64,000 bases of DNA from Phoronis australis (lineage: Eukaryota; Animalia; Phoronida). The DNA is taken from assembly GCA_002633005.1 (NCBI GenBank), contig NMRA01000069.1:487740-551739 (forward strand), read 5' to 3'. The notes under the pieces were generated by a model. That model had not been told where the DNA came from. It was given only the letters and a program-made list of their open reading frames with translations, and made no database searches. This document shows, one piece after another, positions 24,990 through 61,421 of this stretch (the stretch's first letter is position 1; each line of letters starts with the position of its first letter). A program made the position numbers and the translations under genes.

Positions 24990-26639
24990 CTCACAACTTC
25001 GCACTAGAGGGATTTTGGGGTACAGAACTACATGGTTTTTAGCTCCTGGAAAAACAAATTATGAATTCAATATGAGTAGAGCACAGTCATGTGTTGAATG
25101 CAATGATTCTTGCTACTAGAATTACTAGATCTTGTTTGTCTTAACAGAAGCTTTAGTTTGTAGCAAAATCGTTGCCTTTGTTGTGAACACATGCAGTCGT
25201 CCACTGTTTTCTTGTTAAATCAAGGCTTGAAACTTCAAACTCTAATTAGTGAGTCTTAGCAAATGAAGAGCAAACAACAGCTAGAACGAAGTGTGAATTA
25301 AACATGTTACTAGTACCACCACATAAAAAATGATGCATTTACCAATTAAGTTGCTCTATCCCAATCTCTCCATGCCCTTCCCAATCATGCTGGCATGAAG
25401 GTGCTACCAAGAGGTAATGAACACCTACATGTTCAAGCATTTGATAGCAAATTCTCCAAATCAGGACATTTATGATACATCAAGTCAAAAAAATTCCCAA
25501 AATAATGAAATTTTACAATACAGTGAAATTCTGGCTTCCGACTTGAGAACATGGGGTCCGTTTTGCACTATCACACAAAATCACACATTAAAGCATTTCA
25601 CAAGTATTCTTGAGAGCTTGCTGGTGTATCCTTGCAAACTAGTGGCCATTAAAGTGATATTGGTAGTTGAAGTTGGAATCTTGAATAGAACGGAATTCTT
25701 GTCTCCGTTCCACAAGCAAAGATTTTTCATCGCTATTGCTTCACGAGTCCCTTGGGTCTACGGGATGCAGACCTGCTTCTGCTCTTCAACCAGTTGCTAG
25801 GTGGCGAGACCTGATCACTTAGAACTGCTGTCGTACAGGTGCTTACGCTGCATCATATGAGGTTCTGTTAGTCACTCACGAGCAGACAATTGCCAATTAG
25901 CTGGTTTTATCGTGAGTCGGGTGATCTTGGCAATTACAATTGGCTTAGTCCGCAGAATTGTAGAAATTGCCGAGATCACTCAACCCAGGAATAGCACCAA
26001 CAACCTCAAATAAAACTGGAAAAAGTGCACACCATTCACCGAGTGGCTAACAGAGGCTCATATGATTCAGCAAATGCACATCTGCAATACTGACAAACAG
26101 CATGTCGTGGAAATCGACATTTCGTGAGTCCGCTCAAAAACAGTTCAACCTAGGGACAATTTACGATAAAGGGGAGCAGAAAAGGTTAGTAATCAAAAGC
26201 AGAAATAGTCACACAGCCTGATAACATCATGCTTTTTAAGTCTGAATGAAAATACTGCATCTGGTTACATGTGGATACATTTCTAGTCACGTCTCCCTGA
26301 ATTTGACTTTGTTTGGTGAACTATTTTTGAGCACACTCAGGAAATCACATCAATTTATACATATTGTTTAGAAACTGTCTAGTTCTTTTGCAGTTCTAGG
26401 TGAACCAACTCGTCTTGTCACCTGGTAACTGGCTCGTCCACTTCAAGCTTGAATTGCCAGCCACACCACTGAGTGACACAGCCTGGGTCACACTCACACT
26501 CACACTCACGACACAGACAGATACAACAATTTGACTTTTCTGAAGACGAAATCCACAAAAATTGAAAAAAAAGGCTTTGAAAACATTTCGAAATTAAGGA
26601 AATCCGTAAAAATGTGATTCCAAACCGTACTCAAACATC

Positions 26640-29800: not shown

Positions 29801-32800
29801 TATTCAGAGAAAATTATTCTATTCCTCAAACAGAACATCGGTAAGTAAAAGGTGTGTCAACACACCTTGGCACTGTTGGCCAACCTTTGCATGGACACTT
29901 CATATCATATATAGGTGCCTCTTAATTTGTGACCACGCAAACACTCACTGAGACCTTTTTTATGATGCATTTTTATTAAAAGCCCTCGTGCTTCTGAGAG
30001 TTCTGTCAAGCTTAATTTTGAGGTAGCAGAAATGTAAATGTGAGCCTTTTTTGAATGGTGATCTGTGTTTGCTATCAGAAATCACCTGGCAATTGTACTT
30101 CATAATGCGTCTCACTATTGTGTAGTAGGAATAGCATTCTTGCCTGTTGATACATGTTGTGTGATGCACCTTAGGTTTGCTGCTGCTTTTGTGGTTACTG
30201 AATCAGAATCTGGATGGCAATGCCATTTAGTATCAAGTATGTTCTATGGTTACTCAATTAGAATTGGGACAGCAGTGCTACTTATTTTTTTAGGAAGCCA
30301 AAGGTCGTAAGCGAAAAGAACAGATGGGATGGGACGAAGAATATATGGTAAAGTAATGATTATAATGTGACAGATATGTGTATGTTTCCATATATCATGG
30401 GTGCATAGAGCAGTTGTTTAGAAAGAGGTCAACAGTAATGCTACATGTGGACTTGGGATTTGTACTGTTCTCAAGAAAATGTTATGATTTACTATCAAGC
30501 ATTCATTGAAATTAGTTAACAACTGTACCAAATAGGTGGAGGTTTACTATAATAATTCTTTTTGTTCCTGAAAATACAAAATTGCCTATCATTTATGTCA
30601 ACTAGGCAAAAACCTGCTATGTGATGGTCACGGTTGCCACTAAATGTTGGAATGCGCATGGTTGGCCTATCGGACAATCCGCCTCTCAGTTTTTACAGTA
30701 ACCTAAATCTTGTCAATGACAAATTAGGCGGTGCATTGGTAAAAATTCTCGCTTCATTTTTTTCTTTCACATTTTGCTATCACAAAATTGTAGAGTTTGT
30801 GATCGACAGTCAAAATTGACTTTCTTCCAGGGCTACTCAAATGCTGACAACCCATTTGGAGATGAGCACTTAATGGATAACTTTGTGTGGACAAAAAAGT
30901 TTGAAAAGGAAGGTCGAAAAGTCGACGAGCACATCCATTTACAGAAGGAGAAAATGTTGGAGAATAAGGTAATACAGAGAGCGGGGCCTTACATGAATGA
31001 TGGAGACTGGATTATAAAGTGTGTGGGGTTTATGTGACAGAAATGACAAACACTACAGTTCAAGCCAAAACTAATTTCATAAAATGACTGGGAATTCTCT
31101 ATCACGGCAGCTGAGCGCAAGCGGAATTCACCATCAGAGCGAAGCCGTACTTTGTCTGTTTACCTTTGCCATGTACTGTAGATTATCCAAGGGATGAGAT
31201 ACAACACCAATGTTTAGGAACCTTGTATCACATGTTATATTGTGCAAGTAATTAGGTTACAGTTGATCAATACTTAAATTCAGTTGAGCTATTTTAGATT
31301 GAGGATTTCGAAAACTACCCACCGTCATGTGACAGGGACTTGTTACAAAATTTTCTGTTAATAAGTCCCATTTATGTTTTCAGCGTGAGTTAGAGAAGGT
31401 GAAGCGTCGACGGATAGAGAGAGAACGAGAGTACGAAGAAAGGGAGAAAGAAAGGGTGAGAACGCCTGTCATCTGATTACATTGCTTGTACCCCATTTGT
31501 ATCCTCACATTTGTACTATTGATAAGTCCTCCCTTGAAGTTGCTGACCCGAGTTTGGCGAAAATGATGGCTGAAATTCAAATTAAAATGAGGTTCTCGTA
31601 TTTTATGCCTCAAATCAAATCATTGCCTGTGATCCATGTACAAAAAATCCCCCAAGTTGCGTGTCGTTGAATTCTCTAACAATAATTGCAAAAACAAGCA
31701 ATCGGTGTTTCTGCAAATGTCATATCCTCGATTATCGTTGGAGAACGAAAAGACATGCTAGTTTGGGAATTTATGTACTGGGATCATAGGTCTTGATTAT
31801 TTGATGTATAACATTGAAAAAATGGTTTAAGGTTTTATAGACTGTGTACTTAACCAAATATCTACTTTCTGGGTCTGTTTATTTATTGTATTAACTACTT
31901 CATAACATACATTCAAAAAACCCAGTAGATTAATTTAACTTAATAAAAGTGTCACATTTCACCCCATGGATGGGTGGGCACAGGTTGTCACTGACTGGTG
32001 CTAATAGCTTTCGGTGCAATGGTAGACTGAAAACTGGTTCGAGTTAATCACATTATTATCCTCGACCATATATTTACATGTCTGCTCAAACAAAACATCC
32101 AATGTGATGTCTGTTCCATGCTCCAGCCAGTCCTGCGAAGCCTTGACTTGTGAATCAGTAAATTTTGAAACTTTCATATAAATCCGATCACGTCATTCTG
32201 AAACATGATTTTCCGAAGTTGGCCAAATTTGGACATTTTTAGGTCCTACATAAGCTTAAATACATACTGAACGAACTTTCAGAGGTTGACAAGTATGCAA
32301 CTGACTTTAAGCTAAGACTAAGCAAGTTTTAAGTAGTTAAACATGTCAAAAACGCTGCCTATTAGCTCTTACTAGATGACAGAATCGTGGAAAAACAGAA
32401 ACATTTACTTACAAAACAACACTCACCATTGAAACATATGTGTTCCAATGTAGTAGTCGTGCTAGTTGTGTACCCCAGGATGTGTACTCCAAGTATGTCT
32501 TTAAATTGAAAATGCGTGATGTCAAATGCCTCTAATGCCACTTTTCTTTTCAGGAAATGGAGCAGCGAGAAAAAGAGTCTGAATATTACAAAGCCTGGGA
32601 AAAACAGGAAGATAAGGTAGTGGTTGTTTGTGGTGCGGTCTTTACAGCTGAGTTTGTAAATCACATGATCTATGCTCATTCATTATAATGATTGATCTAA
32701 GATTTGTTCGTTTTGATCGTAGGCCTTGTGTGTACAAGGATAATCAGCAGAAGGCACTGCGATCGAGCCCTTGAAATGATTGAAATGTTTTCAGATTTGA

Positions 32801-35800
32801 AACTCTGCGTAGCTAACAAAGCCTGGCGACGCGTAATTTATCTTGTTACGAAAATAGGTTAAGTAAAATCTCTCCGATTTTGGACAAAAATAATTGCCAA
32901 AATTGACCTTTTTAATTTTTCAAAGATTTCTAACATTGTTGTTTATGCGCATGAATTTTCAGAATACTGTCTTGTGTTTGCTGTGGTACAGAGTTTGAAT
33001 GTGGAAAAATGTCCATTTGGTGCTACCGTATCTTTTATGAAAAAATGAAATGTCACTTGTCTGCCATATTGTGTCCTATGTTACCATACTCATCAAAAAG
33101 AATTGGTAGGAGAAAAATCCATTTCCTGTTGTAATGGTCCGTGACTCTTTTTAATTGGTCATGATCCGTAGCGACGGGTCATGACACGTTGTGATTTGCT
33201 GTGACTTGTCGTGATGGGTCACGACCCATCATTTCAGCTTCCCTGACTATAAAGTCCACTCGCAGTCAGTTGTCATGACAGAAGTTTCGTGTCAGTTTGT
33301 CAGATTAGTTTTGGGATGTACTTCTGTTTTGCTCATTTCTGTGGTAAAAATGGTGACAATGAGGTTATATTCCAAATTGTGATCAATGATGTTCATGGCA
33401 GGTTTGATATGTGATGTGTAGATGTTGTGATAACTTTAAAGCTGGGTTAAGCCTTGTTTAGCTGGCTAACAACAAAAGTCAAATTAGGCCATTTACTCAT
33501 AAAATCAGTCTCGCAATATTCCACACTGTGATAGGATTCTATTTCCATTGCCAACTCGAGTCACATGCAATGTGTACACGCAACATTTTCAAGTACATTA
33601 CGTACTTCATGTTTTATTTTTGAATTTGTAATTTTAGATCGACCAACCCCAATAATCTAAAACATTTTCTTGATTTACTGGAATATTATGAGGCTGATTT
33701 TGTTACAATAACAGGCCTAGATCGTATTTCTGGCCAGCTAAATTTGCTGTCACATCTAGGTTAAATCGTTTTCAAAATAATCTCCTTCTATAGTTGAAGT
33801 TACAATTCCTTTAGCCTTCTAGATCTGGGTTATTAGGTGATGGTTTTGATGTACATTTGTCTGGCCTTAACTTTGACCTATTTCAAAATAATCTCCTTCT
33901 ATAGTTGAAGTTACAATTCCTTTAGCCTTCTAGACAGATCTGGGTAATTAGGTGATGGTTTCGATGTACATTTGTCTGGCCTTAACTTTGACCTATTTCT
34001 CTTTCAGTTTCATCTGCAGCAAGCTAAACTGCGCTCAAAAATTAGAATTGATGATGGTAGAGGTATGATACAACCATGTTTTCTCTGTTCTAAGACTTTT
34101 GGGGTGCCCATGCATACATTAATATAATGTTATGCATTTATTGACTTTCCCGAGGTCATTATCTTGGTTTTCAGACCCCAAAAATGTAATAATCTTCTCA
34201 AGTCCGCCACAGTCATCACGTTTTTGGTGTCTGAAAAACAGCATATTGACCTAGTTTGAATGTCAGTAATTGTCTTATTGTATGATTACGTCCTAAGTAA
34301 TTCATGGAAGGAGGCTATGTTTGGACTTTTGATTGTATGTTTATCACTCATGCAATCAGTCAGCTACCAATTTTTATTCAAATAACTTTTTTGGAGAGAT
34401 TTTTTTAAAAATGTCCAGGAGATGCTCGGAATGGAGAAAAAGACAGTTGATTATATTTTGGGAAAGCTATTATCTTTTCGAGTCATCAAACCGTCCTCTT
34501 AAGGTTATGCGTACTCTTATTTCAAAAAAAAATACCTTAAAAATTGGCGCTGACTATAGAAAATCCCAGACATGGTTTTCGTGCATTTTTATCAAAGTCT
34601 TAATACAGATAATTTGGTGAATGCTAGGGAAAGGACTTTTTTCCCTGTCAGTGTACCTTTCAAAAGTGACATTTTTGCCAAAAACGCAAAGTCATGTGAC
34701 CTCAAGAATGGCATAGTTTTGTGAATGACATGAATTAGATTTGTCTCGATTCGATTTTAATTAAAGGTATCCATGACCTTAAATGCAAAGCAATCATTTG
34801 ATTATATCAATTCGACCAAAAGCTGCTTGTCATTTCGCTCACTCTGAGTGCACGTTCTAAAATCTACACAAATGACATGTATTAAAAGTCAGTGAATACT
34901 TTGGCCTTTGAAAACGCTCCTTTTGTACAATATGGTGATGGTGGGTACTGCGATGCCTTGATGCAGATGTGCATTTTACCTTGTGGTTTATCTTCTTTGC
35001 TTATGCGTTCCTTCCTGTATTTTTGGAGTTCATGGAAAAATTTTCATGAAATTTGGCTCATAGGTTTCCATTAGCAAGATGGCGAGACCATCTCATTTTT
35101 GGCCGGATTCAAAATATTCTGCGCTTCCTAGTGGTCGTTTTTATCATACTATTAGAAGCATACCATTTGTGGTACAGTTGTGGGTGCATGTCACTGCTTT
35201 GTGTTTCTCTTGATGTAATGTCTTTAAAAAAAATTATTTAACTGTTTCCTCTGTAGCTTAAGTCTTTCAAATTAGTAAATACTGTAGTCTTTGTCACAAG
35301 TTGGATCATAAAATTATTCTATTTAATCTGTAAAATAGTTTTTATTTGTAGTGATAAGTCTTGATGTCGGTGTGTCTGTGAGTGCAACTCTGTGCGTATT
35401 TGCTTTTCAGCCAAACCCATCGATCTTTTAGCCAAGTACATCAGCGACGAAATGGAAGACGATTTGACGGTTGAGATGCATGAACCCTACACCTACCTCA
35501 ATGTATGTAAGCCAATCATATTTTGTTTTTTAAACTGGTTGATTCCAGAATTTTGAACAACGTGACATTTACTTTCTGTTTCCCAACATTTCAGTGTCAT
35601 GATTTTTCTTCGCCCTAATATAAATAACATGCAAAGTCGAGAGTTTGTCAATATCTCCGCGTGATTTCTTTAATTGTGCCGAATTACTCATCAGGTAACA
35701 TGGTCATCATGCCAAATTGTCATGTTCTGACCTTAATTTAGTCGGCAACAAATATTGGCTGCGTTGTGTTGTGTTCCAGGCTGTTACATTTGCAAGTATT

Positions 35801-38800
35801 GTTGACCAAACAAGCTTTAGTAGTGATAAGAACTGTAAAAATCTTGCTGTTAGAACATGAGGTGTTGTTCTTTGAAACGCACGTTGAATGCTGACGGTTG
35901 TTTCCAGGGCTTGACGATTGAAGATCTGGAGGACCTGCTTGAAGACATCAAAGTCTACACGGAGTTGGAGGAGGGACAGAATATGGAGTTTTGGAAGGAC
36001 ATGATTATTGTAACTGAGGACGAGTTGGCCAAGTTGAGGAGGATCGATCCAAGTTCTAAAGGTAAGGGGCGGTAAATACTGGGGACGGCTGATCAAAGAT
36101 TTTAAAGGAAAAAGCAACTCTTTCTGATGTTTTTTTTTAAGTATATAGATCCCTGTTATCTTGGAAAGATATTTTGCCTTTTTTCTGTTTCAATTATTGT
36201 TCCCTCAGCATTAATTAACCACCATGGAACAATAGAAAATTACACAAATGACCCAGCATAAGACGTGTGTCTTGATTCTGTATTCACTTTCTTTGAGCAA
36301 ACGCAAATGCGCAACACAGATTGTGTTCAGCTCCAAGTGGGACATCGTGTTTGCGCAATGAAAGTGAATGTGGAACCTTTTGCTGGGTCATGCACATTAC
36401 ATTCTGCTGTTCCATGGAGAGTAAATATTCAACAACACGCGACGCAGAATTAGTGTCAAAAGGTGGATATCATCAAATATTGAAACCGGTTTGATTGTGT
36501 GTGTTAGATATGTGGAACGCTTTTCGTTTTTGAAAACTGGTGGCATACTCCTGAGACAACCTGTAATCTTGGTTGCGTAGCTGTGAGGATATTTTTGCAA
36601 TAATGAGAATGGTTTTAACGCTATTAGATCCCAATTTTGGAGTTTTAGTAGATTTTAAAATAAGCTGAGTAGATTTAGCAAAATTTTGACAGACTGTGCC
36701 AAACTTTTCACTCTTTATGCCAGCATTGTTTTACAATAAGACGAAACTTTTACCAAATGTGATGTAGATATGTGTAGTTGTAGTGTAGTCTTAATTAAAC
36801 TTACGTAACACCTTGTGGAAAAGTGTGAATATTGGGCTAAATATGTACAAAACTATAGATTCTGTAAAAGACAAGTTTAAGTGTTTATTTTCTGAAAGTA
36901 GCAGGCTTGTTGAATTTGATTTTTACCTTTTATGAATCTGACATAAATCGGATCACATGACCATGTCCTTTTAGAAAAAATTAGCAAAAAGGAAGGTTTA
37001 TTGATATTAGAATACGGTATCAATAAGATGACCAAATTTGGTTAATATAAATGTTCAAAATGTAATCTCAGAAACTGTTGCTGTTTTCTAAATTATCATT
37101 TCCTTTTGGTTTTATACAACTTTTAATTTTTTTGATGAAAACAATAATAGTCCAGAATCTAATCTCCCATTTCTGATGTATAATGTTCCAAAGTTGGCCA
37201 AATTGGGACATTGTCCTAGGGTCCTTAAGATAACTGTTTACTTTTCTTATTAAGCTTCGCATTTTTTGAAATATCATTACTTACTTTCAAGGCTCGAAGC
37301 CATCATATCATATTTTAGACGACCACAAAAATGTGTTGTGTGACCAAAATCATGATCAGTCCATTGTAATCAGGTGACCATTTTTCTAGAAAATTCTGGT
37401 TTTTCACGCCAATCACAGTTACTTCCACAGACATCAAAATTTGGCGCAAGACTGACAAATTCTGTTTCTGCGTTGTATTTTGGGATTTTCTGTCATTGCC
37501 ATTCCGCTCAAGTCGTTGCCTATGAAATGACTTCAAACTTTTTACGAAATGTTAGGAGTGAGGAAGTGCTATAATACTCTAATTTCTGTGCTGTGTTATT
37601 GTATGGTGATTGTCCAACTATTTTTGTTACATGCAATATGGCAGACAACGTAGACAGCCTTAAAAAGTGTACAAATGATAATTCACTGCTAACTTCACTT
37701 TGAGATTACATGAGATGCGTTTGCAGATCAATGAGTCATTGGTGTGTGGATTCTGATAAAATGTAAGGACGTGTTTTTGTCACTCTTGTGTTTTTGCTTT
37801 TATGTCCACTCACATTGCTTTGTCTCTGGTTGTCATAGTTAACATTCGTGGTCCTTATACTCTCCACTTATTTTTGTAGTGTGCAATATGGCAGACGGTG
37901 TGGACAGCCTTAAAAAGTATATAAATGACAATTTTGGCTTACTTCCTGTTGTCTTTATGCAAAATAATCGGAGAATTGCCTTATCTCCCCACAGACTACC
38001 GGTCAGACCGCCGCGAGACCATCAACCAATCAGTGGGCACTGAGGTGGCGTCTATCTTCCGCGGCAAGACGACTAATCAGCTGGAACTGCTTCAGGAACA
38101 GATTCGGCGTAAGCTACGTGGGGGCGAGGGTGTTGACGTCGGGTACTGGGAGTCGCTGTTACAGCAGTTGAAGGCCCACATGGCACGGTCACGGCTGAGG
38201 GAGAGACACCAGGGTCAACTGAGGAGGAAGTTGTTCAGACTGAAACAGGAGGTGGGTGTGGCATGGGGGTTAAGCACTTTGAGTTTAAGGGTCATGACCT
38301 CAGGGTCATGTCATGATCTTTGACACATTGTTGGTCATGGCTGCGGGAGACACCATGAACGACAAGGGAGGAAACTGTAGCAGGCCATTGTTGATGAACA
38401 TTTCTATGTCTGTGAATACTTCTCTCTTTTTGCTTTGTGCCTTGTTGAGTCAACTGCGTACTAAACTGGTTTGTTTATTTGTTGTGCTAATCATAAACAA
38501 GCTTGATGAATTCTTTACTGTTTACAGCAAGGTATTGAAAGCCAGCCATTGTTTCCGATCGTGAAGGAGGAACCTGACGATAATTCTGAATCTGCCCCTG
38601 CAGACAGTGTTCCTGAATCCACTCCGATAGCTGTCTCGGATGAGGTACCAGGCACGAGTCAGGACGCACAGCCCAGCACTAGCCTAGAAGCACCAAACGA
38701 CCCAGAAAATGAAGTTGCTGAACCAGGTCAAGGTCAAGGTCAAGTTAAAGAAGAGGACAAAGAGGAAGAGGAGGAAGAAGAAGAGTAAGTACTGGAGGCC

Positions 38801-41800
38801 ATGTTGAAAAATGCAGAAGATTATACAGTGTAAAGTTGGCATTCATAATCTTTTTTGGACAATAAGACATGAATTTTAACTTTTGCAACTTTTTCTAGAA
38901 AACCAGCTGTAGTTCAGTCGAGGTTTCTTACCCAGTGTTTTAGACAAGCTTTTGCAAGTTAGTCTTCTTATAGCTTGTCATTAAAAATTTGAATTGATGT
39001 CAAAAATGATGAAAGCCAGGCACCCCATTTACTCCACCTCTCGCACTACTTTCCACGAGAGCCTTCATCCCATTCACACTTTATTTACTCCATGTCACGC
39101 ACAATAAGGCAAGAGACTATTCAGTAGTGCAATTGGACTATACTGTTCTTCTGGCTTTGCTGTAGCTCATTTTCACTGTGAAATCTTTTGCCATCGAATT
39201 ACTTCATGGTGCAACTCCCCATTTACTAAATATTAAATAAACATCTATTTGTTAATTTGTAGTATTTGTATTTGGCCACCTCAAAAGAACAAGTTAATAA
39301 CTTGTGATAATCAACGTTAAATTTACATTTGAACAATAATTTCCTTAATTTTTCGAAGATGCGATGTTCAAGAAATCATTTCTTTCCCTGATGTTGTCTT
39401 CCTTGTTGGTCATGCCGTCTGCTTCAGACTTAAAATGTCGTCTGCTGCTCTCTTGACACAGTGTTGGTAGTGTGACGGAGTGCACGTGCACCGAGCTCCG
39501 TTTTCATTCTCCCAAGTGTCCTTCCATTTCTTTCCCCGTGGACAACTTTTGAGCCAGGGACATGCCATCAAGGTGCATGCCATACCGTATTCATCTTCTG
39601 CAAAGTTACAAACAGACAGCAGTTAAAGTTTGTTTCTTGTCTTTAGTTGTGTGTTATGTTACTCAGTTTGAAGGAATAAATCTCGTAGTAGAGAAAAAGA
39701 GTGCGTGCCACTGAATTCATTGGTGAATTAATTTTCGCAACAACTTAAATAACTGCAAAAGGGTGGAATCGTTATAAATTGGTGTCTTTGCCAACACAGT
39801 CTTTTACAAAAGTTCCTCCATGGAAGATTGAAACTCTACAAAAAGTTAATTTTTGAAAGCAGAATTTAAAGATATGTTTTTAGTGTCATTCATATCTCTT
39901 AAACTTTTGGTGCAAAAGATATAATCATATTTGACAACGTTGTTTCAAGCTTAATGGGTTAAAAATTCACGAACTTTAAAATTAGTGCGAAAGTAAATAA
40001 CGACATATCAATCCAACGTTTCGGTTTATTACTCTAAACCATTCTCAAGGAATCAGTTCACAGACTCTGATTCGTGCTTCTGTTCTGGCCTAAATCAAAA
40101 GTGATCAATCGTCTACTGCAGCAATATAGCCATTCTACCTTAAAAAATCAACTGAATCCCTACGGAAAGTTTAGGTTTTTGGAATTAATCCCAATGCAAA
40201 AGGATGGCGTTTCTTAAACTTTTTGAGGCAGTTGCAACCGGCCACTGGGGTCTGTTATGTGAAAAGTGTCTTAGGGCTGTTCCAGTAAAATCTGTATGGG
40301 AGGGGAGGGAAGGCACTTTTTTTCGCACCCACCACCCATATTTTTCATTTATATCTTCAGCCCACCACCTGTAATATTTTATAAGTTTGAAATGCAACCT
40401 CCCGTAATTTTTTTGTTCTTGCGGTTGTCTGCACAGGTACTTGAGTTTATCTGTTCCTCGATCACCACTGACGTCATTCATTACTTAGAAAATATAATTA
40501 TGTTTCTTATATATGGTTATTAGCCATTGAGAAATTCGAGCGCCTGTGGTTGACTGTGGTTATGCGCATGCCGATGGGAAGGTTGGAGGGAGTGAAAATG
40601 TCAGAGCTTTTTGGAAGTTACGTTTTTATTTTGTTGATTCTTTGCGAATTGTTTATAAAACTTACTGAAATTACCCACCATCAAACATTTATGGCACAAT
40701 GAAACAACAACGACCTGTAAATTTTTGTACGACCACCAGCCATTTTGAATTTAAATCACACACAACCACCCATAAATTTTTATTTCAATTGCCTTCCCCC
40801 CTTCCATACGGATTTTGCTGGAACAGCCCTTAAGAATAATACAGAAATTTGGTCTTACCCTCCCCCTTCCCAATTGCCAAATGAAGGTGTAGTGATGGAG
40901 TTATTAGCGCATAACTGTGTGGAAATATTTGATACAATAATTTTTGTCAACATGTAACAACTTTGAGTATATTCTCAGACAATTTATTCATTTGCTGAAG
41001 TGAGTTTTAACTAAAAATAGTTACACGGAGCATAAGACTAAATTTTTGTCTTACGTTTTTTGAGACACAAAAGTCACTTTTTGCGAAACATACCCCTGGT
41101 GCTGCTGAGTTCAAATTGTTGAAACATGATTAGCAGAAGTTTCAACTTACCTGGACATGAACACCAGTTACATCCATCATAAATTGATAGATCCCCTTCT
41201 TCGCATACAGCTTTCACATTTGGCATGGTTCTTGCCAATGCAACAGCCATGACACCCAACAGAACTGATAAGTTAAGTGCCGTCTTCATTGTAATAAACG
41301 TTATCTGCAAACCGTAGATGTGTTCCACACAGCTGGTTTTTAGATCAGTGTGCTAAGTGCGTTTGTTTGATTTTCATCATAGGGAAGTTTGTGATTGGTT
41401 GTTTTGGATGAGAATAATATTTGCAAGGGTAGATAGAGATATCAGAAAGTGGTTGGGACTAATACCCGTTCCTCTTTAAATTTGTGAACAATAGCCAGAT
41501 AGAGGTCTGTCTAAACTTTTCTATCTTCCTTTGAAACCATCTTGTTTTCTCTTTAAGTAAATGAAAAATAATTTCCCATTTGAATTTTCCATCAGTTGTT
41601 ATACACATTTTATTTTTACCGTAAAACTTCACTTATTGTGGACAGAATAATAGCCAAGATTGTTCTTTTCATTCTCAAAGATTTCTTAGTTATGAATGCC
41701 CAAAATTTCAAAGTATTGTGTGGTGGCAGACATAACATGTCTGCTCACAAATGTTCATTTGACAGGTCGGCATGTCGTAGCCGACCTGTCGCCCACTGGC

Positions 41801-44800
41801 CATCTAGTCAAATCCAACCAGACACGTGATGGTCTGCTAGGAGTTGTTAACTCGGTACCTACTGTGGTCGGGACTTTGATGGGAAGTCTGGTTGTCTAGC
41901 TGTGAGGATTACAATTGATGGGTGGGCAGGATTTCCGTCAAGGCAATTATTGCAAGTGAGCATTATTTCACCGTTATGTAATATGCCAAAAAACTTCACG
42001 AATCTAAAATGTGAAAAACGAGCTTTGTTGCTAATCTCAATTTCATCATTCAATTTAAGCAATGTGCATACAACTCTGTAAACTTTTTGAAAATGCGTTG
42101 TGTTTCCTGTTTTGTTGGCGTATTGGTCTGGATGGAAAACTGTTGACAGGAACTGATGTCAAAAATGGTGAAAGCCAGGTACCACATTTACTCCAGATCT
42201 TGTACTACTTTTCATGAGAGCCATCATCACATTTTTAATCACACCGTGGCACGTACAATAGGACAATAGAACAATCAGTAGTGTAATGACCATAATTTTT
42301 TAACCATCAGACTATACTGTTCTGGCTTTGTTGTAGCTCATTTTCACCATGAAATCTTTTGCCATTGAATTACTTCATGGTACAACTCCCCATTTACTAA
42401 ATAAATAAACATCAATTTGTTAATTTGTACTACTTGTATTTGGCCACCTCAAAAAACAAGTTAATAAGTTGTGTTAATCAACCTTAAATTTACATTTGAA
42501 CAATAATTTCCTTAATTTTTCGAAGATATTCAAAAAATCATTTCTTTCCCCATTGTTGTCTTCCTTGTTCGTCATGTCGTCTGCTTCAGACTTAAAATGT
42601 CGTCTGCTGCTTCTAGACACAGTGTTGGTAGAGTGACGGAGTGCACGTGCATCGAGCTCCATTCTCATTCTCCCAGGTGTCCTTCCATTTCTTTCCCCGT
42701 GGACAACTTTTGAGCCAGGCACATGCCATCAAGGTGCACATCATACCGTATTCATCTTCTGCAAAGTTACAAACAGCAGATAGAGTTTGTTTCTTGTCTG
42801 TAGTAGTGTGTTATGTTACTCGATTTGAAGAAATGAATTCTGAGAGAAAAAGAGTATGCGAAGCTAAGTAAGTAAATTACTTTTTACAACAACTTTCACT
42901 TCAAAAGGATTGAACGGTTGTAAATTGGTGTCTTTACCAACAAAGTCTTTTACAAAAAGTTCCACCATGGAAGATCGAAACTACAAAATGTAACAGTTCT
43001 TTTTTGAAATCAGAATTTTAAGAAGGGTTTTTAGTGTTGTTCATATCTGTTAAAGTTTCGGTGCAAAAGATATAATCACATTTGACAACATTGTCGCAAA
43101 GTCAATGGGTTAAAAGTTCAACTGAATCCCTGCAGAAAGTTTACTTTTGGAATTAACCCCTGCAAAATTATGGTGTTTCTGAAACAGAACTCTGTGAAAT
43201 GGTCGGTTTTTCACTGAAGCTTCCTGCAAATGGCCCCTTTTACATGTCCACTCTCTAATTGGTTGGGTATCCTACCTAACCAGCAGCTGTCCCTATAAAA
43301 ATATCATTGAATACCAGTAGTGAATGAACAGTTATTAAAATATGGACATGCCAAATATCGAGTAGTTTAATGATTAATTAAGTATTTCTTTCTACGAATG
43401 GCATATTCCTTTGTCAGTCTGGAGTACTGTATTTTTCATGGAAGTTAAAATTTAGAATTTAATATAATTAGGTTAACATAATTTGTTCCTTGGTTTGTTG
43501 TGTTCAATACGTTGTTTATTTGCCCGTGCTGTGTTGCATCAAACAGTCCCAGATGGGAACTTGACTAAGTTCCCTAAAATATCTTCATATTTGTGAGCTT
43601 GCGAAAGCACTGATTGTCCTTTCTTATGCTGTTTGAGTTTCATTACTGAGCCAAATTTTTGTTTTGATACAAATTGAGAGTAAACTCTTCGTTGAATTCT
43701 CAATATTAATGAACATTAAGTAAAAATCTCTTCATTCTCGCCATCCCTAAGGACCAAGTCCCCATCCCTAAGGACCAAGTCCCCATCCCTAAGAACCAAG
43801 TCCCCATCCCTAAGGACCAAGTCCCCATCCCTAAGGACCAAGTCCCCAATTATTTTGATTAAATTAATGGCCTAGTTTTTAGTTATATTATTAGAAAATG
43901 TCATCAGTCAAAGAAGGACTGGTAATGAAAAATAATTTGATAGAAAAGTATTACACCTGTGAGTAAAGAACAAAACCAATATGCAAAAGATTTAGGGAAC
44001 TTAGTTGAGTCTCTATTTGGGACTGTAGCAACTGGCCACTGGGGTCTGTTTCATGAAAAGTGACTTGCGAATAAGATAGAAACTTAGCCTTACGCTCCCA
44101 CTTAGCAATTACCAAATGAAGGTGTAGTGATAGAGTTATTAACACGTAACTGTTTGGAAAATTATAATATTTAATACAATAATTTTGTCAACATGTAACA
44201 ACTATGAGTATATTCTCAGAAATGTTATTCATTTGCTGAAATTAGTTTTTAATTACTTTTCAAAAATAGTTATGTGGAACGTAAGACTAAATTATTTTGT
44301 CTTTCGTTTTTCAAGGCTTAAAATTCTCTTCTCATGAAACAGACCCCCGGTGCTTCCGAGTTCAAATTGTTGAAACATGATTAGTAGAAGTTTCAACTTA
44401 CCTGGACATGAACACCAGTTACATCCATCATAAATTGATAGATCTCCTTCTTCGCATACAGCTTTCACCTTTGGCATGGTTCTTGCCAATGCAGCAGCCA
44501 TGACACCCAACAGAACTGATAAGTTAAGTGCCGTCTTCATTGTAACAAACGTCGTCTGCAAACTGTAGATGTGTTCCACACAGATGGTTTTTATGTCAGT
44601 GTGCTAAGTGGATTTGTTTTATTTTCTTCTCAATACATGTAGGTTCGTGATTGGTTATTTTGGTGGAGAGTAATATTTTCCAGGGTAGAGTGAGATATTA
44701 AAAAGTAGTTGGGGCTAATATCTGTTCCTCTTTAAATTCGTGAACAATTGCCATGTAGGTTTTACTGCAAATAGAATTCCGTCTAAACTTTTCTAAGTTA

Positions 44801-47800
44801 TGAATGCCCAAAATTTCTAAATGTTGTGTGGCTGCAGCTGTAGCATGTCTGCTCACAAATTTTCAATCAACAGGTCGGCAACGACTTGCCGACTTGTTGC
44901 CCACCAGCCATCTAGCCAAATCCAACCAGACATGTACTATTAGTATTTAGTCATCTCAAAAGAACAAGTTACTTGTGATGAACAATGTTAAATTTACATT
45001 TGAGCACAATCATTTCCTTCATTTTTTGAAGATACGATATTCAAAAAGTAATTTCTGTCCCCGATGTTGTCTTCCTTGTTCATCATGTCATCTGCTTCAG
45101 ACTTAAAATGTCGTCTGCTCCTCTCTAGACACAGTGTTGGTAGAATGATGGAGTACACGTGCACTGGGCTCCATTCTCATTCTCCCAGGTGTCCCTCCAT
45201 TTCTTTCCCCGTGGACAAGTTTTGAGCCAGGGACAAGCCATCAAGGTGCATGCCATACCGTTTTGATCTGGTCCTGCAACGTCAATCAGCCAAAGTTACA
45301 ACCAGGCAGCAGTTTGATGATCCTTGTCTGTAGTAGTGTGTGTCCTGTTACTAGTTTTGAATGAATGAACGGGGGGGGGGAGGGTATTCCCATAGTAGAG
45401 AAAGAGAGTAGGTGTCGCTCGATAGACGGATTTCTTTTTTAGTACAACTTTCCCTGCAAAAGGGTGGCTTCGTTATGAATAGGTGTCTTTTCCAGCAACA
45501 TTTTGTTAGAAAAGCTTGGCCACCATGCGAGATTGAAACTGCAGAAAGTTCATTTTTTGAGAGCAGAATTTAAAGAAGGGATTTTGTATTGTTCATATCT
45601 CTTAAAGTTTCAGTGCAAAAGATATTACTCATATTTTACAACACTGTTGTTTCAAGCTCAATGGGTTAAAAATTCAACTGAATCTTTGGAAAGTTTAGGT
45701 TTTTGGAATTAATCCCTACAAAGTGATGGTGTTTCTGAAACAGGACTCTGTGAAATGGTCGGTTTTTCACTGAAGATCCCTACAAATGGATCCTTTTATG
45801 TGTCTACTCTCAAATTGTTATGTGGAGCATCAGACGGAATTTTTGTCTTATGTTTTTTGAGACTTAAAAGTCACTTTTCATGAAACAGATGGTTGGGATG
45901 GTGGTTCGGAATTCAAACTGCTGAAACATGATTAGTAGAAGTTTCAACTTACCTGGACATGAACACCAGTTACATCCATCATAAATTGATAGATCTCCTT
46001 CTTCGCATACAGCTTTCACCTTAGGCATGGTTCTTGCCAATGCAACGGTCATGACACCCAACAGAAGTGATAAGTTTAGTGCCGTCTTCATTGTAACAGA
46101 CGTTGTCTGCAAACTGTAGATGTGTTCCACACAGACGGTTTTTATGTCAGTGTGCTAAGTGGATTTGTTTTATTTCTTATCATGTAGGTTTGTGATTGGT
46201 TATTTTGAAGTAGAGTAATATTTGCTAGAGAGAGAGAGAGAGATATCAGAAAGTAGTTGGGGTTAATATGTGTTCCAATAGCCATGTAGGTGTTACTGCA
46301 GATAGAAGTCCGTCTAAACTTTTCTATTTTTGTTGACAAAGGAAGTTATTACACCCGAAAATTTCAAATTTCAGTTGATCCATTCTTGTTGTTTTATTTA
46401 CTAGGTTTTTGTTGACAAAGGAAGTTATTACATCCGAAAATTTCTAATTTCAGTTGATCCATTCTTGTTGTTTTATTTACCGATTTATATCTTCCTTTGA
46501 AACTCATCTTGTTTTCTTTTTAAGATTTTACGCAGTCAGTAAAAAATAATTTCCCTTTGAATTTTCCATCAGTGGTTATAGACGTATATTTACCGTCGAA
46601 TTTCACCAATTTTGAACACTGTAATTGCCAAAATTGTTCTTTTTCATTCTCACAAGTTTCTAAGTTACGAATGCTCAAAATTTCAAAATATTGTGTGGTG
46701 GCACCCATAACATGCCTGCTCACAAATTTTCATTCAACAGGTCGGCAATTCGTTGCCGACCTGTCGCCCATCGGCCATTTAGCCAAATCCAACCAGACAC
46801 GTGATGGTCTGCTAGGAGTCGTTAGCTCAGTCCCCACTGTGGTTGGCACTTGGATCGGAAGTCTGTTTGTCTAGCTGTGAGGATTACAATTGATGGATGG
46901 GCAGGATTTCTGTCAAGGCAGTTATTGCAAGTGTGTATGATTTTACAGTATGTAATATGTCAAAAAACTTCATGAATCTAAAATGTAAAAAGAACAAGCC
47001 TTGTGGCTAATTTCAGTTTCATCATTCATTTTAAGCACTGTGTACACGACTCCACAAACTGTTTGGAAATACAATGAAAAAGTTGTGTTTTCTGTTTTAT
47101 TGGTGTATTTTTGGGGATTGAAAACTGATGAAAACGATTAAAGAACAAATCCTATGGACAAAAAAATTTGAAAACGCAAACAAAAAATTGAAATAGGAGT
47201 CTTATGTTCAGACCCTTAGATGAACAATAACAGCCGACCACGAACTGGGTGTGCAAATGGTTGGCAGGAAACACCCAGCTGCAGTAAGATTTTGCATTGA
47301 AGTTAGCCGTGCAGTCAACAGTGCAGTCTGTTATCGATCTGCTTAAAAGTAGCAGAGCAGTCGGCTAATTTTGTCTGGTCGTTCACCAGTCGCCAACCCG
47401 TTTCCCGACCTGTCAGTTAAAATTTGTGACCTGAGCTGTGTCCACTAGATCTTTTTATTAAGTTAAAAAATTGATGACATTTTTATATTGATTCTTATCT
47501 TTTATTTTGAAGGTAATGAACAAATTAACATTCACTTAATGTCTGCAATTTTTTGCTGTTAGGATGCATATGTATAATATTATGTAATAACTAAAAAACA
47601 TTTGTCATTAAAGCGAGGCATATACTATCGGTGTGCTTGAGACTATAGTGTTGTTATCATAAATTGGCAAGGCTGAAACTTAAGTAGCGGTCAACCGGAC
47701 ATGGGTGCTTAAACTGGAAATTAGAAATTTGCGGTGAACAATTGCTCGAACATAGGTTCTTAACAGAGCTAGACATTCGGCATGACCAGGTATGACCTCC

Positions 47801-50800
47801 CACAATTGAAGTCCTCATGCTAAAAATTGAAAGAATCTGCGGCGTATCGTCTGCCCCTAGTCTAGAACAATTTGCTAATTTGCATTACGAGTTAACTGAT
47901 ATTTATTGATGAGAAATAAAGTGTAGTAATTCTTCACTAATTTTCCACAAAATTACCAACGGCGTAATTTTTTCATTTTTCAAAGGCCGATTACTTTTTT
48001 GCAAATAATGTGGATTTTAGCAATTAATTAACATCAATCTACTGTAACTCAGGCTTATGGTAGACTATCGTAAATTCTCTTAATTTTTTGCGGAGCCATG
48101 TTGTATGCTAAATAAGCAAACTGTTACCGTGGTAAAGTAGGAAAAAAGTGCATGTTTAGAAAATACCCTCCAAAGTTGGTGCACTGACTTGTCTTAGGGT
48201 TATTATTTTTACCACAGTGATTGAAAGTACAAAGTTAGGGGAGTTTTGAGCATAATTTTCTCTTTTTTTGCAGTTCAAATTTTGCAGCTTGCAACCACGG
48301 CTGTGAAAACATGCTGTCAGAAAATCTCCATGCACTGGCTATTAAATTTGGACTTAAGACCAGTTGTGTGTTTCAACGTATGTTATAGTTCAGACTGTAT
48401 TAATTCAAAGTTGCAACATTTTAAGCTGTATTTTACCCTGTTCCTGGCGAAAAAAGCAAAATCGAGTTGAGCCTTTTACTCTCAAAAAAAAAAAACAATC
48501 TCGTACTATTCCTTACTGCGATAGGATTCCATTTCTGTTCCTAACAAGAACAAGGAAACAATCAGGGACTCAAAGAAAATGCTTTAGAGTATATTGGAGT
48601 TGGCCAACCTTAAACTTGTGGATTTGCTTGTGATTTGACAGCAATAAGTCAAGATCTGATGAGCGCGTTAATATTTTAAACCCCAAAGCTCTTCGGCTAA
48701 CACAGACTGACTAAACAGGGGCAAAATTCAGATTTTAGTGAAACGATCCCTAGGATATGATATTTGCCATATGCACAAAATATCACATGTCCTTGCCACG
48801 GTTGTCTATCACTTCCTAATGGTTAAACTGCGAAAAAATACAGGTTCTTTTGAAAAATGAATTTGCTTTAGCGTAGACTGAGAGTCCTGGGTTGGCTAGG
48901 ATCAGAGTTGTTTTATAATGTTTCACAGAAGCAGATAACAGAATGTATTGTCCTAGGATCAGTCACAGTGAAAAACTGTCATTCGAACTGTTCCTGTATC
49001 TGTATTTGAAAGTCTACCTTCAGCATTTTGCAAATGGTTGGTGAAGCATAGCCTTAATGGGTAGTAACAGGGTGAGGGTGGACGATTATGTGAGCATATG
49101 CATGAATCCAAATATTTATTGTACAATGGGGAGGTTGAGGTTTATTAGACTGAATTATGCTATAAAGTTTAATTATGCCTTACGTAAATTTTAGTAATTT
49201 TATGTTTAGCTATTATAATTGAATTTCGTGTTTCTCGGTCATTCTTAACTAGCTCTTATTTTACAAATGACATTTATCTCCTTGTAATTGTCACATAAAT
49301 TGAAAAATCTGTTTACAGTGGAAATTAGAAGCTAATTATAGTCTTGTTATCTATATGAGAGCAAACAGCTTATTAGTGGAATAGTTGCTAATGACCAGGT
49401 CACTCATAACAAAGCTGTACTCAATTGGCTCCAGTTATATCACCTCATCAATAGGAATTCAGTCTCCGATATTTACCCACAATGCTTTGCATCATCCCTG
49501 ATATTTACCCACAATGCTGTGCATCATCCCTGAGTCTATGATATTTACCCACGATGCTGTGCAGGGCACTTGCCCCCCCATGTGTGCACTGTAGTCATGC
49601 TAATGATTATTTTGCATTTAAGATTAATTTGTCGCTTATGATAAATAAAGTTTTAATGCTTAATGGTGAGGTGCTTTGGAGAAGTCAAAATATTGAAATG
49701 CTGTGCGAGACATCATAAATTCTTCTCCAATTGTCCTACTCAACTCCTACGTATTGAAAACTATGTCAATCGTACAATGCATTTTATACCTCTGCAAAGA
49801 GGAGAGTTGAATCCAAGAAGTGGAAAATACAGTAGGCAAAGTCAAAACTTGAGACCTCTTGTGGAAATCTAGTCCTAGAATCAATTGGTAAATTCTGCTT
49901 GGTCTACAGTGTAATTAGACTGTCTAGCATAATTTGTGTTTACTCAAATGAAGAAGGATTTCTGAGCTATAGAAGAGCTGACGTTTCATTAGTTCATAAG
50001 ATCATACCATGTGCCTCAAATGACATGTTGTGGCAAGTCTACTTATCCAGCCAAATCTAGGGAGGGAGGGTTAAATTTAGCTGCTTTAAAGCAATAAGCT
50101 AAGTCCTCTTATTTCGCACAAAAATAACTGCCAAAATTGTCATTATTCCGTCGTTCGTAGGCTGGTTACTGTACTGAAAATAACGGAAAATTACCAAAAA
50201 GTTTACGTTTTATGATATCTACGCAGTACAAACCACACTGACCAAAATTTTATTTGTCGGCCATGTACGCTAAATACGAGAAGATTAACTGTTAAAGTGA
50301 TGCACATGTCTTCAGTCTGAGGCTCTCCAGTAATTAGCATAACACTATGCAGATTGTGAGAAGTGATACCTCTCATCTGTTACACATGTATGACAGGTAT
50401 TTTCAATGAGAAAGTCGGGAAAAGCTGGTGCAGTATATGACTAAAAGTAATCAAAACAAAATACGGTTTCCCCGTCATGATAGTTCATTCTATTGGTTAT
50501 CAGTATAGGCTGTAGGAAGGACGGAAGCAAAATAAAGTGCGAAGTGCAAAACATGACTTTCCTGTGCATAATCTATTGTCGAACTGAACTCAATACACGC
50601 AAGGCCACTAGGGTGCGCTAACAAATACAACAAGTGACATCTATTGAGCACAATCTACAACAACTTCTATTTACAGCAAAAATGACAAGTCTGGTAAAAA
50701 CTATTATGATGGCAAAATTCTAATTACAGGATTGATGGCCACCTTTATAACTTTCCGTTTAATTCCCCTTCATACTTGGCACACGAGATCAGTTAATTTA

Positions 50801-53800
50801 CTGCGAGGTTGAATTTGGCTTGAGCCGAGTCGTCGTGATGGGGAATTCCAGGTCATTTTGTCTGAATACTTCTGGTATGGACTAAAGCTTAATAAGTGAA
50901 CAGGCTGTGATGTACAGATCGTTATCTTTTCAGAGACGAACCGTTATTGACGGAAGAAGACCTCTTGGCGCAGAGTTATGATGAGTACACTCTGGGTAAC
51001 TACTCGCCTCGACTTCTGCGTGTGTCGGAGCTGGAGCCTGACACGATCGTCTACGACCCTGAGGATGACATGAAGAGACTGGAGTATGCGCGTGTCCACC
51101 TGGTGAAGACTGGCAAAGTGGTAGGAATCCTCATTGCGTGGAATTTTATAGTGACATTATGGGCGAAAAATGTAATGTTTCTGAGATCACCCTCTGAACA
51201 GAAACCAACCTGCAACCCCACGGTCGTAATCTAATTCTCTGCTGGTGAAGCTAAATCCCACTTGATAAATGACATTGTGTTTTGATCGTATTTAACTGGT
51301 AAAGTCACTGTGCTTGATTTTAGTGAAAGACTGGCAGACAATGTCAAGAATTGGCGATTTGTAATAAAATCGCAAGAACACATGGGATCTTGTTGTCACA
51401 TGGCTCTGGTCAAAGCTGAGTTCTGCCCCATCCAGCAATAATCTCATAATGTGTTTTTTTCAGATGTAGAACCGATATTGTCCCTTTAAAGCCTCACCGT
51501 GTTCTGTTGTTACAAACATTATTATTCTTCACAAGTGTCTTTACTCATAACTGCCAAGGCAATGCAATCATGTTCTTATTCTTTGTTTGACTTCAATTTG
51601 TCTCAATAAATTGCCTAGAATTCCCTTTGTGGCTATTCTGCCGTGGAGCCTGAAACTAACCATTGTGACAAGCATCTTAACGGGTCTGGTCTGAAACAGT
51701 AGCGACCTCTATTGTTCTCAAACCTAGAAATTGTTTCTAATCTGACTAAGGAACAAGATGAGACTGATTTTACAATATTAAATGCCCTAAATTGAAAATT
51801 GATTTTAGACAAAAGACGCAGGTTCTTTGCCCCTTCACTTACACATGTCTGAAATGAAAAGTTACGGAATATGTGTTCAGGAAGGCAAGTTGTGAGAAAG
51901 ATCCGCTTGTAGGTAAAGTGTCGCCATATTGCACCACCAGAGGGAGTGAAAGTGTGCAGAACTAATGCAAAAGTAACAATTCTACATCAGCCTTGCAACG
52001 ATGAAATCTGAAACATCAGTTCAAATCACTTCTATCTGATTAAGCTTTAATTGTGTTAAACTTGATTAGTGCCTGCGCTTCTTATTGCCCGGGTTATTTC
52101 CTCAGAATGTCATCTGTCTTCGGACTGAACGTGACTTACATCCATATTTTATACCAATTGGTGCAGATGTCTGATAAAATATTGCATTATTGTCTTTGGC
52201 ATCTCGATACAACTAAGTCAGTGAGATCAGTCGACCATCGCTTGATATATGACCATGGCTTTAGGAACAACTTTAGAATGGTCCGTGGATCTGTATTTTT
52301 GATCTCATGGAGAATTTTGCTAAAGGTGCTGAACACCACCCAGTGTCTCCACCTAGTGTTCACTCTCAAAATGAGCTTTTCCCATTTGACAGACAATTCA
52401 GTCTTCACCATTTTCAAGTTGCTCACAAGTCCACATGCCAACACTTAATATGAGTAAGGTACATTCTCATACCAAACTTAGAATTTCTATGATATACAAG
52501 GTAGAATTACTGACTAGTACCAGTACTTCTGATTTTTAAAATGTCAAGTGAATTTGACCACTTCTCATTTCAGCGTGATGACATCGACTCTGAATTGTTG
52601 AAGAAAGCACGTGAGGGTATGAATGATGACGAGGCCACCTTTGGGGTGCAAGTGAAACTAGAACACCAGGAGTTGCTCTGGTCGGATAAGTACAGACCAC
52701 GCAAGCCTCGTTTCTTCAACAGAGTTCACACGGTGAGGCGTAATGACAGAAATAAGATTTTGAATATTTGGCACAATTTTGAATGTTACTTAAGTTTTCT
52801 TAATCAAACTTATTAATTTCAGTTGGCGCAAAATTGATTATCTAAAGTGCCATCCACACACAGACTTACCCTAGAACAAGTTACTCCTGGAACAAATTGT
52901 CGCTGGGTTTAAGGTCTGTGTGGACGCTATTTAAACTAGTGCAATTTATGCCACTTGTGACAACTTACTCCACCTTATCGAGGTGGGGTAACTTGTTCTT
53001 GGATAGCTTGCGCCTCTTCTAATCACTGTGTGGTTGCAAAAGTGAGGCAGCTGTACTTACATACAGACGGGTTTTCTCTTGTGTGCCGTATTCGAATTAG
53101 GTGTTCACTGTCACGCTCAGAACGACAACTTCCGCTTTACCCTAGTTATCGGATATAAATGTGTGTGTGGACGCTCCACTTAAAAGTGGGGTAAGTTGCA
53201 CTAGTGCAAGCTGTGCTAGTGTAAGCTTTGTGTGGACGGGAGTTAATTCATCTTATTACCAGGTTTTGATTAAAAAGCTGGTTTTGTTGACATCATCTGG
53301 TTTTGTCTGGGTTACGGGCAACAAAATATGTCGGAAAATTATAACAGTGAATTAACAGAAAATTAAACATTCAAATGGCTTGGTTTTGATGTTAAGCATA
53401 GTTAATGAAAAAAGAAATTTATTTAATTCTTTTGCCAGAGATTTTGCTTTGTAATTTGGCTGGTAGTCAACAAAAAGTTATATTTATGAATTCTTTTGAA
53501 TACATCAAAGTTTTTGTTGCCTAAAAATAATTATGATATTAACCTAACAGTGACTAATCGCAGACAGGACATTGCTTCTGTCTTTCCTTTGATATTTTGG
53601 TTTGTTTCAGTTCTGTTTGGAAGAAATGTCAGGGAAGTATTTACCCATCCTGTCTTATCCTTATCCACCATTAAAACTTCTTGAAATTATCTACATACAA
53701 ACAGTTAGTTCGCCAACATTACCATTTGTCACAGCGCCACCTCTGGAGGAGAGTGATAACCGGCAGAAATCTGTGTGTGGGCATCACTGTGCCTCGGTTT

Positions 53801-61100: not shown

Positions 61101-61421
61101 TCTGATGATATAAATCGGTAAATAAAACAACAAGAATGGATCAACTGAAATTTGAAATTTTCGGATGTAAAAACTTCCTTTGTCAACAAAAACAAAGGAA
61201 GTTTTTACATCCGAAAATTTCAAATTTCAGTTGATCCATTCTTGTTGTTTTATTTACCGATTTATATTCTTCATTTCATGAAACAATAGTATCCTTGGGA
61301 GGATCTGGATCGCCTTATTTAGTTTCAGATATATTTTCTACGTTATTTCTGATGATAAGATGTTAACTGGATAAATCACTTACTAAAAGCATAAAAGTCT
61401 GGTGAGTCACACGCACGCACA

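Follow-up and report, generated by a model that had tools for sequence, protein, structure and literature searches.

What is encoded by the three small genes that lie antisense within one long intron of Cactin in Phoronis australis, and does their position there matter? We analyzed a window of 64,000 nucleotides (nt) from contig NMRA01000069.1 (positions 487,740 to 551,739), in which Cactin is on the plus strand. Reading the window sequence gave three two-exon genes (g1, g2, and g3) on the minus strand inside Cactin intron 12, with products of 94-108 amino acids (aa). The best explanation is that these are three nested antisense genes, at least two of which are expressed, and that their products, predicted to be secreted, likely act as chymotrypsin-type serine protease inhibitors via a pacifastin-type domain. 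We assign this reading a probability of roughly 75%.

The three genes share one design. The first coding exon is 139 nt long and ends at a GTAAGT donor, the phase-1 intron ends at a TTGCAG acceptor, and the spliced frame is open throughout (108 aa for g1, 94 aa for g2, and 95 aa for g3). Exon 1 of g1 (41151..41289, on the minus strand like all exons of the family) encodes a signal-peptide-like N-terminus, a short pro-segment, and Cys1-Cys4 of a pacifastin-like domain. Exon 2 (39410..39597) contributes the reactive loop (39560-39577), a four-Cys module (39455-39556), a Lys-Arg pair, and a 12-residue tail. The corresponding exons of g2 lie at 44402..44540, where sequence, Pfam, and RNA reads identify exon 1, and at 42613..42758 (reactive loop 42721-42738, four-Cys module 42616-42717). 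Those of g3, both intact, lie at 45953..46091 and 45125..45273 (reactive loop 45233-45250, four-Cys module 45128-45229). Each spliced peptide contains ten cysteines, at positions 29, 40, 43, 45, 54, 59, 65, 83, 85, and 93. Residues 1-20 resemble a signal peptide, with a basic start, a hydrophobic core, and a Kyte-Doolittle-type hydropathy of 2.55-2.81 over residues 9-19, and from this hydropathy the peptides are predicted to be secreted. A TATA-like element at 46139..46146 (minus strand), which may serve as a promoter, precedes the g3 start codon by ~50 nt; g2 has it at an equal offset, and g1 has a variant of it. The RNA reads of the family stop between the TATA-like element and the ATG.

These gene models agree to the nucleotide with an initial annotation of the window, which had proposed three tandem two-exon antisense genes with phase-1 GT-AG introns and ten invariant cysteines despite flanking indels. 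All of these features are present in 3/3 copies, and gaps in the coding sequence amount to at most one of 3 nt. It had also claimed that the intron split hides the motif. The relaxed pacifastin motif is absent from all six frames of the unspliced window sequence; once spliced, all three genes contain it. Genes that are antisense, intronic, and carry a motif divided by an intron thus have a route by which to escape annotation.

Transcription and splicing were assessed in three raw-read RNA runs under the species label (~18-19% of each run was read) and in one older contig set. The g1 junction (41151/39597) was covered by 10, 16, and 17 reads in the three runs and the g2 junction (44402/42758) by 3, 2, and 0, in both cases with GT-AG ends on the minus strand. 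In these stranded RNA sequencing data, the first mate lies on the plus strand only at the peptide exons and on the minus strand at Cactin exons, an opposite orientation which indicates that the peptide transcripts are antisense to Cactin. Strand-specific family reads are confined to exons. About two thirds to three quarters of the family reads are g1-like and the rest g2-like, and a third junction allele appears in 4, 6, and 5 reads. The Thr-Leu-Met codons of the reactive loop showed no variant among the best 40 of 81 read rows. At least two of the three genes are transcribed and spliced, giving g1- and g2-type transcripts.

The initial annotation had pointed to one junction per gene. The first two were found on the strand opposite Cactin, whereas the g3 junction (45953/45273) was not listed in the RNA data and no read matched g3. 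Depth in the bin of g3 exon 2 was 0 in 4/4 runs. With g3 as the sole target at 80% likeness, reads that were 99% alike numbered 0/213, 0/229, and 0/172. At six sites private to g3 exon 2, every read had the g1/g2 letter (e.g., 88/88, 82/82, and 65/65).

Crossed junctions also appeared, joining 39597 to 45953 (25/25/14 reads) and 42758 back to 41151 (14/13/2 reads). Exon shuffling and back-splicing were considered as their source and rejected. Reads placed at g3 exon 1 lacked the g3 letter at 46049 (43/43, 71/71, and 48/48) and at 46067 (35/35, 57/58, and 45/45), and reads carried letters absent from all three reference copies, mostly in the signal peptide. Because these reads are without g3's own letters and have letters of no reference copy, the crossed junctions are best read as misplaced reads of divergent alleles. 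Separately, 5/61, 9/72, and 6/61 reads and the older contig have 2 extra nt immediately ahead of the stop codon (45128 / 42611-42616), an allele that ends in a different short tail.

The first six cysteines carry the evidence for a pacifastin-type domain. All three spliced peptides match the spacing C-x9-12-C-N-x-C-x-C-x(6-10)-C-T-x3-C, which follows the consensus in PMC2689174. The Asn after Cys2 and the Thr after Cys5 are kept, and the loop presents P2 Thr and P1 Leu. The P1 residue sets the protease specificity of pacifastins (PMC2689174). Exon 1 of all three copies matched PF05375 with E=0.011 and 15.8 bits over profile positions 2-17 of 40. Exon 2 alone had no Pfam match, and neither exon matched VWC or FnI at E<=1.

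We compared the peptides to a proxy profile made from a metagenome motif scan of at least 121 loci, 98 of which supplied at least 135 distinct six-Cys domains. Of these 135, 50 were given to Pfam; all 50 matched PF05375 at E<=0.001, and 21 also matched VWC. When the profile was run against the PDB, the first 15 matches, and 16 of the best 19, were pacifastins. The spliced peptides scored 27.0-29.8 bits on the full profile, roughly twice the 5.6-13.9 of single exons or more. A short-loop sub-profile (19 members) aligned Cys1 to Cys6 end to end with 26.9-32.2 bits, and 20.4-22.7 bits were obtained on a sub-profile limited to 32 domains that lack the searched Met-Ala. Cys-preserving shuffles reached the peptide scores in 0/1000 cases in each profile test. 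Solved locust inhibitors carry the same loop type in PDB alignments. As a side observation, metagenome contigs L043, L046, L055, L070, L093, and L119 carry arrays of 3-6 tandem pacifastin-like domains.

The last four cysteines form a separate module (module 2) with spacing x17, x1, x7, which the initial annotation overlooked. Folded alone, module 2 was modeled as three strands with a predicted local distance difference test (pLDDT) score of 86.6. The top Foldseek row was a pacifastin, with a root-mean-square deviation (rmsd) of 1.5 A over 26 columns and E 0.74, and pacifastins made up 8 of the first 21 rows, all non-significant. The best VIA row was beta-microseminoprotein-like 3 (Z 3.5, rmsd 1.7, 33 aligned), and FnI modules gave Z 2.4-2.7 with an rmsd of ~2 A over 30-31 residues. 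These models predict that module 2 is a sheet of three strands, of FnI/pacifastin type and lacking a reactive loop. It resembles FnI modules and the beta-microseminoprotein N-terminal domain in the predicted sheet, the Cys-xn-Cys-x-Cys-x7-Cys spacing, and weak structural matches, but its first loop is shorter (17 residues) and it has no sequence match or significant structural match to them. Its spacing would suit a short FnI module and equally a pacifastin domain from which Cys2, Cys6, and the reactive loop are missing.

Several observations weigh against a family of pacifastin-type inhibitors. The published Gly spacing (x2-3 after Cys4, x3-6 before Cys5) is matched by 0/3 peptides; a Gly is present in the Cys4-Cys5 loop, two residues before Cys5, and 26/135 proxy domains fail the same spacing. 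The 15.8 bits of exon 1, obtained with half a domain scanned, are below the Pfam gathering score of 27.9 bits. A pacifastin-like pattern was used to collect the proxy members, which makes the proxy test circular in part, and on the full profile the scores of the peptides lie at the level of the weakest member (minimum 29.4 bits) or under it. Module 2 reaches 1.0-3.6 bits on the proxy pacifastin profile and 7.7% in hhalign against the pacifastin-like alignment, and all of its fold matches are non-significant (E>=0.7; Z<=3.5). The g3 gene is silent in these samples or missing from the sampled animals, and some transcripts could come from paralogues elsewhere. On account of its Gly spacing, we call the first domain pacifastin-like and do not count it as a strict member. 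The pacifastin identity claimed initially holds in that looser sense, and the displaced Gly and P1 Leu described with it were supported.

Some of these points suit a different explanation, a secreted non-inhibitory peptide with an FnI/VWC/beta-microseminoprotein fold. It would consist of one ten-Cys VWC-like domain or two FnI-like modules with an idle loop, would bind protein, matrix, or microbes, and would owe its reactive-loop appearance to inheritance. A VWC domain has ten cysteines and ends in a Cys-Cys-x-x-Cys pattern. The ten cysteines agree with that count, yet no adjacent Cys-Cys pair exists in the peptides. The displaced Gly, the 21/50 proxy domains that also match VWC, and the best VIA rows for module 2 point the same way as the count. 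Set against them are the Pfam results, in which exon 1 matches PF05375 and neither exon matches VWC or FnI, the retention of both the Asn after Cys2 and the P2 Thr, and the prediction that module 2 folds confidently alone. We consider a non-inhibitory peptide unlikely, though still a serious candidate.

The inhibitor reading, which we prefer, would work as follows. Each gene would be transcribed from its own TATA-like promoter, and the product would be exported, with its signal peptide removed near residue 20. Cys1-4, 2-6, and 3-5 would pair as in pacifastins. The pacifastin-type domain would then present its Leu-Met bond to the protease active site for canonical, substrate-like inhibition. 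Module 2 may fold separately with two disulfides, adding stability or a second contact (exosite). The g1 tail may be trimmed at Lys-Arg, so that all copies would end alike.

We next consider the position of the genes. Cactin (26845..56340, plus strand) has 17 coding exons for 736 aa, supported by Pfam, PDB matches, and lophotrochozoan Cactin guides, with 0 internal stops and GT..AG ends in 16/16 introns. Pfam and PDB identify Cactin on both sides of intron 12. This phase-2 intron (38785..50933, numbered by coding exons only) is 12,149 nt long and the next longest is 1,933 nt, as expected from its initial description as far longer than the others. The Cactin junction 38784/50934 was not listed, with 38716-38790 skipped as repeat, and one RNA contig stops exactly at 50934. 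An Rfam scan of the intron gave 0 matches.

One could propose that the nesting is functional and that the cluster is co-regulated with Cactin, or interferes with it, in a Toll/NF-kB immune response. Cactin is reported to act in NF-kB-related processes in insects (PMC5394457, PMC11005415), prophenoloxidase is under the control of pacifastin in crayfish (PMC2689174), and the antisense genes are far deeper in reads than Cactin (pooled depth 67-88 on peptide exon 2 vs 0-8 at sites in the flanking Cactin exons). However, Cactin is a spliceosome component (PDB label; PMC9136304, PMC4132184), the peptide genes carry promoter-like elements of their own and have no exon in common with it, and one run (X3) contains family reads with almost none on the two flanking Cactin exons. 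The initial annotation had raised the Toll/NF-kB link; no evidence ties the genes to it, and Cactin is mainly a spliceosome factor. We regard functional nesting as very improbable, and the position inside Cactin is likely incidental.

The genes form a tandem array (38991..47131, no strand assigned) of units of ~3.2, 2.8, and 2.2 kb that are 77-85% identical over aligned blocks, flanks included. The array takes up 8,141 nt of the 12,149-nt intron, and 4,008 nt remain. Between copies, identity is 90-98% in the coding exons, where alignments have no more than one gap (3 nt, in frame), and 79-94% in introns and flanks, where gaps reach 16 per 200 nt. The ratio of nonsynonymous to synonymous substitution rates (dN/dS) is 0.26-0.42 between copies, from small counts (Fisher p 0.003, 0.030, and 0.057). 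The coding exons are under purifying selection. A fourth copy was sought in the 64-kb window and none was found. The comparison of copies supports their origin by local tandem duplication in a recent expansion, as initially suggested, and the searches made found no relatives. The reactive loop, Cys-Thr-Leu-Met-Ala-Cys, is invariant among the three copies. This constancy indicates that the expansion is not a diversification of specificity and points to gene dose, not an arms race; the copies would mainly add dose.

Other features of the array concern variation and repeats. Within the mature peptide, the highest variability was observed outside the reactive loop, at module-2 codon 45144-45146 and the matching g1/g2 codons: the copies encode His, Leu, or Phe there, and most reads encode Tyr. 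Upstream of each gene is a 146-nt element that contains a 29-30-nt palindrome (41682-41827, 44790-44935, and 46657-46802; 82-85% identical) and is a candidate regulatory element or small repeat. The g3/g2 unit border (44933-44935) lacks ~0.6 kb found at the g2/g1 border, which indicates a shortened g2 upstream region. Inserts resembling miniature inverted-repeat transposable elements (MITEs), with no strand assigned, occupy the g1 intron (40273..40830, 33-nt inverted ends) and the g2 intron (43543..44026, 52-nt inverted ends and an internal 21-nt tandem repeat). RNA reads on the g1-intron insert come from both strands and run on into unlike sequence, and interspersed repeats at 46327-46498, 61104-61276, 58366-58466, 50687-50871, and 3989-4157 also draw both-strand reads. 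The idea that the repeated unit is transposon-borne or a decaying repeat, not a gene family, takes in the repeated flanks and introns, the MITE-like inserts, and the silence of g3 in the 4 runs, but it is scarcely credible given exact GT-AG splicing, exon-confined strand-specific reads, dN/dS below 0.5, indels that fall almost only outside the coding sequence, unit ends that lack inverted repeats, and the absence of a transposase frame of at least 90 aa.

The host gene and its neighbors bear on the identity of the animal. The window Cactin is closest to that of Lingula (68%, vs 46-56% for three insects). It groups with Lingula in a 40-row FastTree tree (support 89) and with Lingula and a bryozoan in a 16-row tree (92 in the Shimodaira-Hasegawa-like approximate likelihood ratio test). 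Approximately unbiased tests on Cactin did not reject placement with insects (p 0.113) or molluscs (p 0.268). Cactin thus groups with lophophorates in the best tree, a placement not formally proven. The PIGO gene (GPI ethanolamine phosphate transferase 3; 1891-8727, minus strand) has a very long internal exon with a 584-aa open frame. Its matches were 32-35% to named molluscs over most of the query and 27-28% to bees, a pattern that agrees with a non-arthropod host, and the PIGO tree left placement unresolved. An exon with a weak match to DAP3, a mitochondrial ribosomal protein (58952-59233, minus strand; E=0.004), belongs to a gene converging on the Cactin 3' end. A 171-aa open frame of coiled-coil character (24543-25058, minus strand) diverges from the Cactin start ~1.8 kb away and has no useful Pfam match.

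Searches for homologues of the peptides used half peptides as queries, and distant full-length relatives may be missed. A word-index search with exon 1 among proteins of 52-168 aa found no homologue, and an exon-2 profile gave 0 matches at E<=0.001 among 1.84 billion representatives. The ESM Atlas returned no usable match for exon 2; for module 2 it returned two scorpion-short-toxin clusters at 0.75, which were rejected as below the lead threshold. Sequence searches of the PDB gave chance fluorescent-protein rows or nothing, and neither exon 2 nor module 2 had a significant match in fold searches. In the literature, searched mostly without subscription papers, we found no pacifastin report for a brachiopod or Phoronis and no nested gene in Cactin. 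The surprise expressed in the initial annotation was overstated, since both clustered paralogues and the occurrence of pacifastin-like domains beyond arthropods have been published. PMC13388995 lists 394 proteins with pacifastin-like domains (PLDs), 109 of them molluscan, and PMC2689174 describes clustered paralogues in insects. Nested genes and tandem paralogues are likewise known, and no new mechanism is involved.

We compared the peptides to known pacifastin systems, with the arthropod pacifastins as the reference set (PF05375; MEROPS I19 as cited in PMC2689174; locust PMP-C/LCMI-II, 1gl1 and 1pmc; SGCI-type, 1kgm and 1kio). Common to both are a signal peptide (predicted here), the 10-residue Cys1-Cys2 loop, Cys-Asn-x-Cys-x-Cys, a Cys-Thr-x3-Cys loop with P1 Leu, clustered recent paralogues, and one dibasic site. 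The peptides differ in that the Gly of the Cys4-Cys5 loop has moved to the 6th or 7th place and in that they continue into a four-Cys module, which no cleavage site separates from the first domain. In insects a single exon holds the domain (PMC2689174), whereas here an intron interrupts it after Cys4; exon 1 encodes the predicted signal peptide together with half a domain, and the host is likely a lophophorate. The Trichoplax tapp-1 precursor also spreads each domain over two exons, but it is split after Cys3, has 42 domains to the one found here, and has no chymotrypsin-type P1 in the account of PMC2689174. The non-arthropod 'Ancestral' and rare 'Conventional' forms of PMC13388995 share with the peptides a six-Cys scaffold outside arthropods, and the Ancestral forms are found together with FnI, VWC, and other modules. 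The peptides combine a short 'Conventional' loop and P1 Leu with a non-PLD module, in contrast to the 155 Conventional proteins of PMC13388995, which are 100% PLD-only. In that paper, forms with a short loop are regarded as PLD-only and as mainly an arthropod feature, and its main text names no brachiopod, phoronid, or nemertean.

These genes represent an expressed family of small, likely secreted pacifastin-type peptides in an animal group for which we found no pacifastin report, with a pairing of modules not found in the protein libraries searched. They offer a natural 70-residue scaffold for protease-inhibitor work, and they allow a direct test of the view put forward in 2026 that soluble pacifastins with a short loop and a hydrophobic P1 are an arthropod specialization. 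We tentatively propose, at somewhat less than even odds, a two-module architecture outside arthropods in which a short-loop, Leu-P1 inhibitor is fused to a duplicate of itself that lacks the Cys2-Cys6 pair and the loop and serves as an exosite or stabilizer. If true, this recent, still-polymorphic lophophorate expansion would demonstrate that small, soluble pacifastins of the chymotrypsin type arose independently of those in arthropods, and it would run against the model of such pacifastins as an arthropod specialization.

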